Shown: positions 1 through 4,880 of the stretch, in pieces | How the letters are laid out: each line of letters starts with the position of its first letter | How positions within the stretch are numbered: the stretch's first letter is position 1 | Virus record (IMG/VR): IMGVR_UViG_2711768016_000011 | Source: a virus | Taxonomy: Duplodnaviria > Heunggongvirae > Uroviricota > Caudoviricetes | Length of the DNA: 4,880 nt | Reading direction: 5' to 3' (one strand) | Program-made: the position numbers and the translations under genes | Notes under the pieces: model-generated | Databases searched by the model: none | What the model was told of the DNA's origin: nothing | The model's input: only the letters and a program-made list of their open reading frames with translations

Positions 1-47
1 CTTAAGGAAACAACATGTTGGGTGGAGCGGACAATCCAAATGGCGAA

Positions 48-155
48 TTACCGTCTTATATCACTGGCGCTGACAAAAACAATGATTTTCTGGTGCGTAC
101 CGGGTTGAGAAGCGGTGTAAGTGAACTGCAGTTGCCATGTTTTCATACTTCGCAT
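48..155 (-). CDS. Possible small ORF (35 aa from ATG 155..153, or 32 aa from ATG 146..144) whose core 21 codons equal an internal piece of IS1 InsA ([21 protein letters not shown])
   Basis: Manual translation of the - strand: [35 protein letters not shown], stop TAA at 50..48. No convincing Shine-Dalgarno. Below the size cutoff of the supplied ORF track. Confidence 0.25.
88..151 (-). mobile_element. 64-bp segment identical (as recalled) to the interior of IS1 (insA linker region), with unrelated sequence on both sides; IS1 remnant or recombination scar
   Basis: Reverse complement of 88-151 reads AAAACATGGCAACTGCAGTTCACTTACACCGCTTCTCAACCCGGTACGCACCAGAAAATCATTG, matching IS1 insA codons for [21 protein letters not shown]. 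Flanks on both sides fall to background-level identity with IS1. Confidence 0.6.
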
Positions 156-165
156 GGCAACATAA

Positions 166-507
166 TTATTTAGACAAACTATCTAATTTTTGCGTCGCTT
201 TTTGTGTTAGGTCGCTGTAACTGATAAACCCTACGTTAGCACCTACAATTAACACTAAGAACACTAAGCTGCATATGGATAGAGTGGCAGATTTATGCTT
301 ATGGAAAACAAAATATGCTACTATTGCACTTAATATGAAGGAAATGAATAGAAATATAGATGTTGATGTTTTTAGATATTTTTCAGGAAATAATGGGTGA
401 GCAATAATGTATACAAGATTAAGTAGTATATAAATTGCTACCGGAATGAAAATCATGCTCCAGTGTGTATCTTTTTTGGGAGGGATTGGCTGCAAATAAT
501 CAGACAC
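166..507 (-). CDS. Hypothetical small integral membrane protein, 113 aa, three predicted transmembrane helices (about residues 18-40, 49-68, 76-96); GTG start as given by the ORF track, alternative ATG at 456
   Basis: ORF track. Three long hydrophobic stretches separated by short charged loops (PEKYLK, HKHK). AT-rich (about 33% G+C by hand count). Co-oriented with, and 82 nt downstream of, ORF 590-967. No family recognised. Confidence 0.55.
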
Positions 508-589
508 CGTTTTTCCATCAGTTTCAAGAAGAATTACTAGATCTCTTACTTCACCACTGACTTGAGTGCATCCTTAGTAGTAATGTTAA

Positions 590-967
590 TCATTTTTTCC
601 CTCCAAATACGATGCCCTCTACGTCTTTGGAAGCTTTTTGTGATGACCACTCCTCTGAATCAGGTGATTTAATTAAAAATATTGTATCTCCATCAAAAAT
701 CGTATTTGTTCCGTAAAAATTCACATTTGATAGATCACCACCAAAAACCCTCTGCCCACTCGAGGTAATTGCCTCACCTAATTTAGTAAAATTACCAGCA
801 ATAGATGATTTTCTTTTTCCACTTCTATTCAAAGTGGCTTTAATTACACCACCACCATCCTTAGAGTTAAATAATTGAATGTCCACTCCAGCAGTTGGTT
901 GTATATATTTTGAAAGCTCTTTCTTGAACTTGTTAATATATTTATCTTTGTTTTCTTTGTTGGTCAT
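590..967 (-). CDS. Hypothetical soluble protein, 125 aa, Lys/Gly/Ser-rich, no Cys or His, no signal peptide or TM segment; first gene of the AT-rich two-gene cassette
   Basis: ORF track, ATG at 967..965, stop TGA at 592..590. AT-rich (about 34% G+C by hand count over 601-960). No motif I can assign to a known family. Confidence 0.55.
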   Translation of the reverse strand: MTNKENKDKYINKFKKELSKYIQPTAGVDIQLFNSKDGGGVIKATLNRSGKRKSSIAGNFTKLGEAITSSGQRVFGGDLSNVNFYGTNTIFDGDTIFLIKSPDSEEWSSQKASKDVEGIVFGGKK

Positions 968-1054
968 TGGTTAGATCCATAGTTCTGGCTGTGATTAGGT
1001 GAAAGTATACAAGGTTTTTAAAGCGAAGATCACTGTTTTGGCTTCAAGATAGTT

Positions 1055-1083
1055 TTGATTTATCGTAATCAATCCGCCATAAT
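1055..1083 (+). promoter_or_regulatory. Candidate sigma70-type promoter upstream of ybcN: TTGATT (1055-1060), 17-nt spacer, CATAAT (1078-1083)
   Basis: Hexamer match and spacing read directly from the sequence. No experimental or comparative support available here. Confidence 0.25.
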
Positions 1084-1120
1084 CCTCTCATCGGAGCCTG
1101 AACAACTCCGGTGACTTCTG

Positions 1121-1144
1121 CGCATTTAAGGGGACTTAAATGCG
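1121..1144. repeat. Perfect 10-bp inverted repeat CGCATTTAAG-GGGA-CTTAAATGCG (hairpin or operator candidate) in the 5' region of ybcN
   Basis: Exact reverse-complement arms with a 4-nt spacer. A second 9-bp inverted repeat lies at 1176-1184 / 1197-1205 (ATGCAGAAA ... TTTCTGCAT), just before the ybcN ribosome-binding site. Confidence 0.5.
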
Positions 1145-1231
1145 ACCACAATCTGAACTCATCACCTTGTCACAGATGCAGAAATGCACCTGCGATTTTC
1201 TGCATTCTGCGGTTTCCGTTAGGGAGGCCGT

Positions 1232-1687
1232 ATGACTCTGCCAGTAGACGGCATCAAACTCCATCGCGGTAACTTCGCGGCCATCGGCCAGCAGATTCAG
1301 CCATTGCTGGATGCCGGGCAATGCTTACGCCTGCAGGTTAAGCCGTGGCGCGAGAAGCGCAGCCTGTCGCAGAACGCGCTCAGCCACATGTGGTACACGG
1401 AGATCAGCGAATATCTCATCGCCCGCGGCAAGACCTTCGCTACGCCTGAGTGGGTCAAAGACGCGATGAAGCACACCTATCTCGGCTACGAAAGCAAAGA
1501 CCGTGTAGATGTCGTGTCCGGCGAGGTCACCACCGTCCAATCCCTCCGCCATACGTCAGAGCTGGAAACCGGCGAGATGTACATCTTCCTGTGCAAAGTC
1601 GAAGCCTGGGCGATGAATATCGGCTGCCACCTGACAATTCCGCAGAGCTGTGAATACCAGCAGCTGCGCGATAAGCAGGAGGCGTAA
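1232..1687 (+). CDS. ybcN: NinB/Orf-family recombination (DNA-binding) protein, 151 aa, YbcN-like
   Basis: ORF track. Shine-Dalgarno AGGGAGG at 1221-1227, ATG 1232. Length and position immediately upstream of ninE-ybcO-rusA match DLP12 ybcN. Stop TAA overlaps the ninE ATG (TAATG). Symbol assigned from synteny and length, not from remembered sequence. Confidence 0.85.
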   Translation: MTLPVDGIKLHRGNFAAIGQQIQPLLDAGQCLRLQVKPWREKRSLSQNALSHMWYTEISEYLIARGKTFATPEWVKDAMKHTYLGYESKDRVDVVSGEVTTVQSLRHTSELETGEMYIFLCKVEAWAMNIGCHLTIPQSCEYQQLRDKQEA

Positions 1688-1857
1688 TGGCTACACCGCT
1701 TATTCGTGTCATGAACGGGCACATCTACAGAGTATCAAATCGTCGTAAGCGTAAGCCTGAGCTGAAGCCATCCGAAATACCAACACTGCTCGGATATACC
1801 GCTAGCCTGGTTGATAAAAAATGGTTGCGACTGGCAGCAAGGAGGAATCATGGCTGA
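1687..1857 (+). CDS. ninE: NinE-family small protein, 56 aa
   Basis: Manual translation: [62 protein letters not shown] at 1677-1682 with a 4-nt spacer. Not in the ORF track (short). 3' end overlaps the ybcO start by 8 nt. Confidence 0.85.
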   Translation: MATPLIRVMNGHIYRVSNRRKRKPELKPSEIPTLLGYTASLVDKKWLRLAARRNHG

Positions 1858-2140
1858 TTTGAGAAAAGCAGCGCGTGGTCGGGAATGCCAGGTAAGAATC
1901 CCTGGCGTATGTAATGGCAATCCTGAAACGTCAGTACTGGCACATATCCGGCTGGCTGGATTGTGCGGTACCGGTATCAAACCGCCAGACCTGATTGCCA
2001 CCATTGCATGTTCTGCCTGTCACGACGAAATCGACCGCCGCACATATTTTGTCGATGCTGAGTATGCAAAAGAATGCGCGCTGGAAGGTATGGCGAGAAC
2101 GCAGGTTATCTGGCTGAAAGAGGGGGTTATTAAGGCGTGA
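1850..2140 (+). CDS. ybcO: DUF1364-family prophage protein (putative nuclease) YbcO, 96 aa
   Basis: ORF track frame 1811-2140, but the start is placed at ATG 1850 ([15 protein letters not shown]...), preceded by GGAGG at 1841-1845. Cys-rich (C-x-V-x-I-P-G-V-C ... C-S-A-C-H) pattern typical of this nin-region family. Confidence 0.9.
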
Positions 2141-2499
2141 ATACCTACAGCATCACATTACCCTGGCCTCCGAGCAATAACCGCTATTACCGCCATAATC
2201 GCGGGCGCACACACATCAGCGCAGAAGGGCAGGCATACCGCGATAACGTCACCCGAATCATTAAAAACGCAATGCTGGATATCGGCCTGGCTATGCCAGT
2301 GAAAATCCGTATTGAGTGCCACATGCCGGATCGCCGTCGCCGTGACCTGGATAATCTGCAAAAAGCCGCTTTTGACGCACTCACCAAAGCAGGTTTCTGG
2401 CTGGATGATGCTCAGGTCGTTGATTACCGCGTTGTGAAGATGCCTGTTACCAAAGGTGGGAGGCTGGAACTGACCATCACCGAAATGGGGAATGAATGA
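2137..2499 (+). CDS. rusA: Crossover junction endodeoxyribonuclease RusA (Holliday junction resolvase), 120 aa, GTG start
   Basis: ORF track. Protein [26 protein letters not shown]... recognised as RusA. GTG at 2137 overlaps the ybcO stop (GTGA). Confidence 0.95.
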
Positions 2500-2636
2500 T
2501 GTTTGAGTTTTATATGGCAGAACTTCTTCGCCACCGCTGGGGGCATCTGCGCTTATATCGTTTCCCCGGTTCTGTTTTGACCGATTACCGAATACTGAAG
2601 AATTACGCCAAAACCCTGACAGGAGCAGGAGTATGA
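2496..2636 (+). CDS. ylcG: Small prophage protein YlcG, 46 aa
   Basis: Manual translation: [46 protein letters not shown], stop TGA 2634-2636. Start overlaps the rusA stop (ATGA). Position and length match DLP12 ylcG. Confidence 0.75.
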
Positions 2637-2721
2637 AGTCAGAGATAACAATCAACTAATACTGTTTTGTTGATTTTTGCTTGTAATTGGCGTTCTGGTC
2701 TGATTTTTGTGGAGTAAGTTG

Positions 2722-3105
2722 ATGCGTGATATTCAGATGGTTCTTGAGCGTTGGGGAGCGTGGGCGGCTAATAATCATGAAGATGTGACCTGGTCGTCCA
2801 TTGCCGCCGGTTTTAAGGGATTAATTACTTCAAAAGTAAAATCTCGCCCGCAATGTTGTGACGATGACGCGATGATTATTTGCGGGTGCATGGCCCGTCT
2901 GAAAAAGAACAACAGCGATTTGCACGATTTATTAGTAGATTATTATGTAGTCGGTATGACATTCATGTCACTGGCAGGTAAGCATTGCTGCTCTGATGGT
3001 TATATCGGGAAAAGGTTACAGAAGGCTGAGGGCATAATTGAAGGGATGTTAATGGCATTAGATATCCGGTTAGAGATGGATATCGTTGTTAATAACTCTA
3101 ATTAA
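2722..3105 (+). CDS. quuD: Q-family late-gene transcription antiterminator, 127 aa
   Basis: ORF track frame 2707-3105 (TTG). Start preferred at ATG 2722 with GGAG at 2711-2714 and a 7-nt spacer. Protein [22 protein letters not shown]... recognised as DLP12 QuuD-like. Confidence 0.9.
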
Positions 3106-3120
3106 TATGCCAATTGTTTA

Positions 3121-3156
3121 CTAAAAATTATTAAAAATGGGGCGTTGCAACGCCCC
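3121..3156 (-). terminator. Rho-independent terminator reading on the - strand: perfect 18-nt palindrome GGGGCGTTGCAACGCCCC (3139-3156) followed on the - strand by ATTTTTAATAATTTTTAG
   Basis: GC-rich perfect palindrome plus a T-run on the - strand only. On the + strand it is followed by CAAAAATAAA, so it is not a + strand terminator. Confidence 0.6.
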
Positions 3157-3222
3157 CAAAAATAAAGGGTAATATATAACAGAAGGTTTATATAGTTAGA
3201 AGCAAGGTTGTGCTCCTAAAGG

Positions 3223-3278
3223 AAGTGGCTTGAGGGAGCCACTTATATGTTGGGGAGGCAAAGCCTCCCGCAACATAT
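3223..3278. repeat. Two adjacent hairpins just 3' of the nmpC stop: AAGTGGCT-TGAGGG-AGCCACTT (3223-3244) and ATATGTTGGGGAGGC-AAA-GCCTCCCGCAACATAT (3245-3278, 15-bp stem with one bulged G)
   Basis: Reverse-complement arms read directly from the sequence. Followed by CTTTT on the + strand and TTCCTTT on the - strand, so either could be a weak terminator. Confidence 0.45.
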
Positions 3279-3293
3279 CTTTTAGTAATCAAA

Positions 3294-4376
3294 TTAGAAC
3301 TGGTAAACCATACCTACAGCAACGATATCATCGGTAGCAACGCCAGATGCTTTCGTGAAATCGCTCTTATCAATCAGGTTGATTTTGTAATCAACAAAAG
3401 TGGACATATTTTTGTTGAAGTAATAGGTTGCACCTACATCAATATATTCAACCAGGTCCTGATCACCCCACGCACCCAAGTCTTTTCCTTTAGATTGCAG
3501 GTAAGCAACGGACGGACGCAGACCGAAGTCGAACTGATATTGTGCAACTACTTCGAAGTTTTGTGCTTTGTTGGCAATATGGTTATTACCAAAAACAGTC
3601 ATGTTCTGGGTTTCAGAATAGGTGGTAGCCAGATAGATGTTGTTCGCATCATATTTCAGACCAGCTGCCCATACTTCAGCATTTTGACCAGATGCATTCA
3701 GGCTGTTGTTACCGTAGATAACCTGATTATTAGTGCGGTCAGATTTAGCATAGGTTGCACCTACACCGAATCCTTCATACTCATAAGTAGTGGAGAAACC
3801 GAAACCATCACCATTAGCTTCAGTTACGTCAGTGCGGTCATTTTTACCCTGATACTGAGCAGCAAAGTTCAGACCATCAACCAGACCAAAGAAGTCGTTG
3901 TTACGATAAGTTGCAACACCAGTGGTGCGACCAGTCATGAACACATCTGTTTGAGTCCAAGTGTCACCACCGAATTCTGGCAGGACGTCAGTCCACGCAC
4001 CGATGTCGTATGCTACACCGTAGTTACGGCCGTAATCGATGGAGCCGTAGTCACCGAATTTCAGGCCAGCGAAGGCAAGACGGGTTTTATCTTTGGAGGA
4101 ACCTTGAGATTCAGCGCGGTTGCCTTTGAATTCATATTCCCACTGACCGAAACCAGTCAGTTGATCGTTGATTTGGGTTTCACCTTTGAAGCCAAGACGG
4201 GCATAAGTAGTATCACCATCATCTGCATCATTAGAGGAGAAGTAGTGCTTAGCATTAACTTTCCCGTACAGATCCAGCTTGTTACTGTCTTTATTATAAA
4301 TTTCAGCTGCCTGAGCAGACATCGCCATCAGTACTGATGCAGCTACAGCAGAAATTGCCACTGTTAATTTTTTCAT
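3294..4376 (-). CDS. nmpC: Outer membrane porin NmpC (OmpC/OmpF/PhoE family), 360-aa precursor with a 23-aa signal peptide ([23 protein letters not shown]), intact
   Basis: ORF track frame 3294-4436. Start moved to ATG 4376 where the canonical porin signal peptide begins. C-terminal ...VAVGMVYQF with terminal Phe typical of beta-barrel porins. Convergent with quuD, as in DLP12. Confidence 0.93.
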
Positions 4377-4655
4377 CGTGAGCCCTTTTTTTGAACTATT
4401 ATTAAAAAATGATGTCATTGCGCGATAAATATTCATCTAATCAATGTGATTATTTCAAGATGTAAGTTTTGGTTTCTCGTTTGATTTGTGAAGTAGATCT
4501 CTATTTTTATCTGAACTTTTTTCTATCGAATCCTATTCATGGCTCTTGACTGAATAAAAATAAATCTATTAGCCAATTTATATTAACGGCTGTTATTTAT
4601 AAGTGCTCTATAATTTGAAGGTTCAATTTAAACCGGCTAAAAATAACACTGGAAA

Positions 4656-4677
4656 TTATTTGTTGGTTATTTGTTGG
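4656..4677. repeat. Perfect tandem direct repeat, 2 x 11 bp (TTATTTGTTGG TTATTTGTTGG)
   Basis: Read directly from the sequence. Lies in the AT-rich region between the nmpC 5' end and the IS1 end. Confidence 0.5.
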
Positions 4678-4766
4678 GATTTGCTTATGTATTTGTAGTG
4701 GTGTTTTCAATACTCGGTAGCATTCTCGCAAATATCATTTAGTGGTTTACGTACGTAAAAAATTGG

Positions 4767-4880
4767 GGTAATGACTCCAACTTATTGATAGTGTTTTATG
4801 TTCAGATAATGCCCGATGACTTTGTCATGCAGCTCCACCGATTTTGAGAACGACAGCGACTTCCGTCCCAGCCGTGCCAG
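4767..4880 (-). mobile_element. IS1 right end (terminal inverted repeat GGTAATGACTCCAACTTATTGAT...) with the element body continuing beyond the window; IS1 is in - strand orientation
   Basis: Reverse complement of 4767-4880 matches the last ~114 nt of IS1 as recalled (...CTGGCACGGCTGGGACGGAAGTCGCTGTCGTTCTCAAAATCGGTGGAGCTGCATGACAAAGTCATCGGGCATTATCTGAACATAAAACACTATCAATAAGTTGGAGTCATTACC). Confidence 0.9.
4782..4880 (-). CDS. insB: IS1 transposase InsB, C-terminal 32 codons plus stop (partial; 5' part outside the window)
   Basis: Minus-strand translation from the window edge gives [32 protein letters not shown], with the stop at 4784..4782. Matches the InsB C-terminus. Confidence 0.85.

Follow-up and report, generated by a model that had tools for sequence, protein, structure and literature searches.

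A 64-bp internal fragment of IS1 between an IS21 end and DLP12-like prophage DNA: probable remnant of an IS1 copy truncated twice

How did 64 bp from the interior of IS1 come to lie, with neither end of the element beside them, at the left edge of a prophage segment? The question arises from a stretch of 4,880 nucleotides, hereafter the window, which is the complete 4880-bp short-read draft contig CWWB01000211.1 (GCA_001247865.1). It begins in IS21 on the left and stops in IS1 on the right; short-read assemblies normally break in insertion sequences. A preliminary description of the window had placed a block identical to the interior of insA at 88-151, between sharp boundaries and unrelated flanks, and had proposed, among other origins, the scar of an IS1-mediated deletion. 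The features of the window that bear on the question are listed here with their positions.

1..75, minus strand: IS21 terminus, lying upstream of istA; position 75 is the last base of its outer end (...CTGACA) and the element runs leftward off the contig
76..79, no strand: AAAA spacer of 4 nt, not IS1, between the IS21 end and the IS1 fragment
80..143, minus strand: internal IS1 fragment, IS1 nt 227-164, 64/64 exact, without inverted repeat, start codon or insB
131..161, no strand: hybrid hairpin over the junction, with left arm GTTGCCATG (131-139) from IS1 and right arm CATGGCAAC (153-161) from the prophage
144..165, plus strand: start of the prophage sequence, intergenic DNA after replication gene P in relatives, colinear with strain A7 (L002) from 4001
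166..594, minus strand: first cassette gene, predicted membrane protein, phrog_16940, frameshifted by a 1-nt deletion near 569/570
590..967, minus strand: second cassette gene, phrog_18061, 125 aa
4767..4880, minus strand: IRR end of IS1, nt 768-655, 114/114 exact, running off the contig

As the IS1 reference we used the complete 768-bp IS1A copy of strain CV839-06 (L003 4690-5457), which is bounded by IRL and IRR. The longest exact match to it in the left 300 bases of the window was 80-143 on the minus strand, where 64 of 64 nt are identical to IS1 nt 227-164. A megablast search with window 60-180, run on 5426 complete E. coli genomes, set the same limits: query 21-84, corresponding to window 80-143, was 100% identical to IS1, and IS1 matches of at least 99% to the query were present in 8183 records. 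A match of 64/64 nt to IS1 is far beyond what is expected by chance. The length and identity of the block were therefore as first described, and its coordinates were 8 bases off. The boundaries are indeed sharp, with exact breaks at 79/80 and 143/144, and similarity to IS1 stops at both of them. At the right edge IS1 would go on with ACGG (ACGGCAG) at 144, where the window has CATA; at the left edge window 76-79 is AAAA, where IS1 has ATAT, both in the IS1A copy and in L009.

Among the properties of a functional IS1, the block has the sequence identity (64/64 nt, IS1 nt 164-227). The IRL and IRR of about 23 bp were looked for around 80-143 and neither adjoins the block, and complete insA and insB' frames with the A6C frameshift site are absent. 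The start codon of insA is at IS1 nt 56, so the block covers insA codons about 37-58, which fall between the zinc-finger and helix-turn-helix parts of InsA; this start codon, the frameshift region and insB are all missing. Without an inverted repeat, a promoter, a start codon or any complete domain, the block is inert, and it can neither transpose nor make functional InsA. The sole plausible activity of the relic would be to pair, as a 64-bp stretch of homology, with other IS1 copies in RecA recombination, and recombination of this kind with the directly oriented IS1 copy 4.6 kb to the right could delete the DNA between them.

Two open reading frames cross the block, and both are treated as artefacts that join the IS21 end, the IS1 fragment and the prophage. 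The ORF at 15-173 on the plus strand (52 aa), which is a gene call in a public collection, spans the pieces and is chimeric, and it matched no Pfam family. The ORF at 48-155 on the minus strand (35 aa) is also chimeric, with 21 InsA residues in frame; by inspection, no Shine-Dalgarno sequence was found upstream of it.

The flanks had been called unrelated. They are not derived from IS1, which agrees with that description, but both of them can be identified: IS21 is on the left and prophage DNA on the right, and flanks derived from a divergent iso-IS1, once considered for this block, were rejected for this reason.

On the left side, blastn with window 1-90 found IS21 ends in 2593 genomes. The IS21 copy of FDAARGOS_943 is 100% identical over window 1-79, of which 76-79 is flank, and its annotated istA starts 27 nt leftward of where window 1 aligns. 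The copy in pVTB432v-2 differs from the window terminus by one mismatch. The terminal ...CTGACA typical of IS21 (TGTCAG on the opposite strand) is found beside istA, and the outer end was set at window 75 by comparing three independent insertions (L001, L004 and L006). One sharp boundary of the block is thus explained, because its left flank is the end of IS21.

The AAAA spacer has the length of an IS21 target duplication, with one side of IS21 present on the contig: the duplications that we measured were 4 bp, AAAA in L004 and CATA in L006. In L006, used as a control, IS21 lies inside IS1B with the 4-bp CATA duplication, and IS1 is contiguous on either side of it; in a second control, L001, IS21 abuts IS1 nt 232 without a spacer. 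Simple insertion of IS21 into an intact IS1 was rejected for the window, because the 4 nt next to IS21 are AAAA and not ATAT, while L001 and L006 are contiguous. Models of intramolecular inversion or deletion by IS21 that could give AAAA/TTTT were worked through by hand and were rejected too, as all of them need IS1 nt 227 to be joined beforehand to TTTT/AAAA. Since IS21 duplicates 4 bp of its target, these results suggest that the AAAA was joined to IS1 nt 227 before IS21 inserted there, a reading in which the spacer is explained by assumption. With IS21 inserted at such a pre-existing joint, the left truncation of IS1 would be older than IS21.

Three independent IS junctions lie within 5 nt in insA: at nt 227 in the window (window 75-80), at nt 232 for IS21 in pVTB432v-2 (L001 1516), and at nt 227 for an IS3-family element in S1-CHI-01-A (L008 2501). 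The cluster at IS1 nt 227-232 may have arisen by coincidence or may mark a local hot spot of insertion.

On the right side, window 144-4766 aligned in a single piece of about 4.6 kb with strain A7 (L002 4001-8625), with 98.5% identity and 2 gaps. A comparison with the syntenic position in related prophages had been proposed at the outset, and A7 is colinear from 144. In A7 the genes are ordered as replication protein, replication protein P, two minus-strand hypothetical genes, ybcN, ninE, ybcO, rusA, ylcG and quuD, followed by a porin gene on the minus strand and then by essD and rrrD. The ORFs and Pfam families of the window, together with the colinearity with A7, give the DLP12-like nin/Q order ybcN-ninE-ybcO-rusA-ylcG-quuD with the porin next on the opposite strand. 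By this gene order, the right flank is a decayed DLP12-like lambdoid prophage.

Position 144 corresponds to a point 56 nt past the stop codon of P in A7 (P ends at L002 3944), and the stop of the first cassette gene is 22 nt further on. The cassette was found in 46 of the 5426 complete E. coli genomes, and all 46 match the window from 144 onward only. It means that the sequence normally left of 144, gene P and beyond, is replaced here by the IS1 fragment and IS21. The preliminary description was broadly right in seeing a rearrangement product that bounds the left side of an AT-rich cassette, with the 143/144 joint so close to the first cassette gene. The alignments show directly what each of the four pieces is, where exactly it begins and ends, and that the IS1 fragment lacks the ends of IS1.

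The cassette at window 166-967 is AT-rich (30-37% GC) and consists of two minus-strand genes between gene P and ybcN. Its proteins, phrog_16940 and phrog_18061, gave no Pfam match above the cut-off and no PADLOC match, and the cassette is a moron-like insert without assigned function. At 569/570 the CC of A7 is changed to C, which breaks the 142-aa membrane-protein gene and leaves a 113-aa ORF at 166-507; the frameshift in the phrog_16940 gene is either a pseudogene mutation or a sequencing error.

At the far right of the window, 4767-4880 is a true end of IS1, oriented like the fragment, just as first described. Its IRR at 4767 is the single IS1 terminus in the contig and is part of a separate copy, inserted at what in A7 is 8625/8626, in the interval from the porin gene to essD. 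This copy sits about 390 nt upstream of the porin start codon, before essD.

The 143/144 joint has a further structural feature. The prophage DNA that normally precedes the joint reads ...GCAGCCATG, and the native prophage carries here a hairpin composed of GCCATGC, the loop ATACTTC and GCATGGC, with a 7-bp stem (L002 3995-4018, about window 138-161). The breakpoint falls in the left arm of this hairpin. IS1 nt 168-176 (CATGGCAAC) is identical to prophage window 153-161 on the opposite strand, and the hybrid hairpin over the junction has a stem of 9-10 bp, in which 131-140 pairs with 152-161. The fold energy was -14.7 kcal/mol for the hybrid hairpin versus -14.9 for the native one (51-nt region for the native). 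An inverted match of at least 9 nt across the junction was present in 0.16% of simulated random junctions, in a test that was designed after the repeat had been seen. This figure decomposes into weak direct homology, the native palindrome and three extra bases, and the hairpin is a curiosity and not a proof of mechanism. The native hairpin, lying between gene P and the cassette, may be a terminator common to these convergent genes.

Several mechanisms were considered for this joint and rejected. For microhomology-mediated deletion, the closest direct microhomology is GCCATG; it is offset by 4 nt from the junction register, and 10% of 20,000 simulated IS1/prophage junctions equalled it, which gives no significance (p about 0.10). 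Quasi-palindrome correction, or fold-back self-templating, was rejected because the sequence left of the 9-mer follows IS1 (CTGCAG...) and not the complement of the prophage arm. By hand we also worked through models of template switching, fold-back and inversion, and none of them yields the observed sequence.

Taken together, we think that the block is probably the inert remnant of one IS1 copy that was truncated twice, with neither event using the ends of IS1 itself. We infer the following order and mechanism of events, and likewise that the contig represents a real chromosome. The IS1 copy, in minus orientation, would have formed the left border of what survives of the DLP12-like prophage. 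On the right, a transposase-independent (illegitimate) deletion would have joined IS1 nt 164 to prophage DNA just past gene P; it would have taken IS1 nt 1-163, with IRL and the start of insA, together with adjacent DNA, and IS1 nt 168-176 would now stand in for the lost hairpin arm. On the left, a second event would have cut IS1 at nt 227/228, where IS21 now adjoins through AAAA. Disruption of IS1 by nested IS elements is common among complete genomes (L001, L006 and L008). Nested or truncated IS copies are routine in E. coli, and an internal fragment that has lost both ends is less common and not a new kind of object. The feature is ordinary IS debris with two small oddities, the AAAA spacer and the rebuilt hairpin.

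It is unlikely that the arrangement was created by assembly, through the threading of two real junctions of different IS1 copies via a shared 64-nt segment. In that case the 64-bp island would not exist, and a longer 5'-truncated IS1 (nt 768-164) would border the prophage. The window is a whole draft contig with its ends in IS21 and IS1, IS1 has a median of about 10 copies per E. coli genome, and the arrangement is unique among all collections searched, all of which is consistent with such a join: neither junction was found elsewhere in the 5426 complete E. coli genomes, PLSDB plasmids, GTDB representatives, JGI metagenomes or IMG/VR, and no intermediate state was found in those same collections. 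However, the shared 64 nt are shorter than an ordinary Illumina read, and reads of at least 100 nt should span both junctions. A false join needs a shared k-mer, and IS1 shares no sequence of k-mer length with either flank; each junction would then have to be real alone, and each is probably backed by reads. The same contig was also reported in 2 samples. A literature search with the assembly accession gave no match.

We regard as quite unlikely a single complex event, a deletion joining the IS21 flank to the prophage whose repair copied in templated filler, 64 nt plus AAAA, from an IS1 elsewhere; no IS1 copy would then ever have been at the locus. Both edges of the block are non-canonical joints and one of them has a 4-nt spacer that does not look templated, which would fit such repair, and the inverted 9-mer, at its frequency of 0.16%, could mark the annealing of strands during the switch. 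Nevertheless, we found no template-switch path that gives the observed orientation together with the retained TTTT, and by sequence inspection the nascent 3' ends would have no homology to the acceptor at either joint. To our knowledge, templated filler of such length is rarely documented in enterobacteria, which counts further against it.

Very improbable, in our judgment, is a 143/144 joint directed by structure, where the hairpin captured, or was selected to keep, an IS1 segment that rebuilds its stem. If it were so, the locus would be a natural case of hairpin-guided illegitimate recombination between the interior of an IS and phage DNA. We give equally little weight to a separate idea about the two pieces of IS1: the relic and the copy at 4767, being in direct orientation, could mark a former IS1-bounded unit of 4.6 kb with the cassette, rusA, quuD and the porin gene.

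The classic scar of an adjacent deletion or rearrangement mediated by the IS1 transposase, as first proposed, would fit IS1 sequence at a truncated prophage edge with a second IS1 in the same orientation 4.6 kb away, but it is unsupported and effectively refuted, because deletions and inversions mediated by this transposase retain an intact IS1 terminus at the new joint, whereas both joints here lie inside IS1 (nt 163/164 and 227/228), no intact IS1 end or inverted repeat abuts either novel junction, and no IRL or IRR occurs in the left 4.7 kb of the contig.

For the twice-truncated IS1 copy that we prefer, the meaning is modest. The locus documents the erosion of a defective lambdoid prophage by nested IS activity, with little reach beyond this genome. 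It also illustrates how identifying the flanks can account fully for an "orphan" IS fragment, and it carries a caveat for annotation and assembly, in that a 64-bp block of this kind can seed spurious IS1 matches or mis-joins. The rebuilt hairpin is a small curiosity for students of illegitimate recombination.

Among known systems, the closest to the window are partial IS1 pseudogenes made by nested insertion, with IS21 in ECOCN22 and pVTB432v-2 and an IS3-family element in S1-CHI-01-A. Such pseudogenes are annotated as [quoted passage not shown]. As in the window, IS1 is interrupted in insA or insB and the remnants are non-functional, and the interruptions in insA (nt 227 and 232) lie within 5 nt of that in the window. 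The pieces of these pseudogenes keep their own inverted repeat, whereas the piece in the window has lost both ends and is 64 nt long. Their IS1 is contiguous to the inserted element apart from the target duplication, while in the window 4 non-IS1 bases precede IS21. Adjacent deletions mediated by IS1 also have IS1 at the deletion boundary, but the window is without the intact IS1 end that defines them.

The prophage side can be compared with DLP12 of K-12, a cryptic lambdoid prophage with the order ybcN-ninE-ybcO-rusA-ylcG-quuD-nmpC, in which nmpC is disrupted by IS5. IS-driven decay of DLP12-type prophages is well known. The window shares with DLP12 the order of the nin, Q and porin genes and the theme of IS-mediated decay in a defective prophage. 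The upstream module is different, being ybcL/ybcM/ylcH in DLP12 and the AT-rich two-gene cassette in the window. The borders are different as well: DLP12 is bordered by IS3 and IS5, while the window has IS21, the IS1 relic and the IS1 copy at its borders, and its porin gene is intact.
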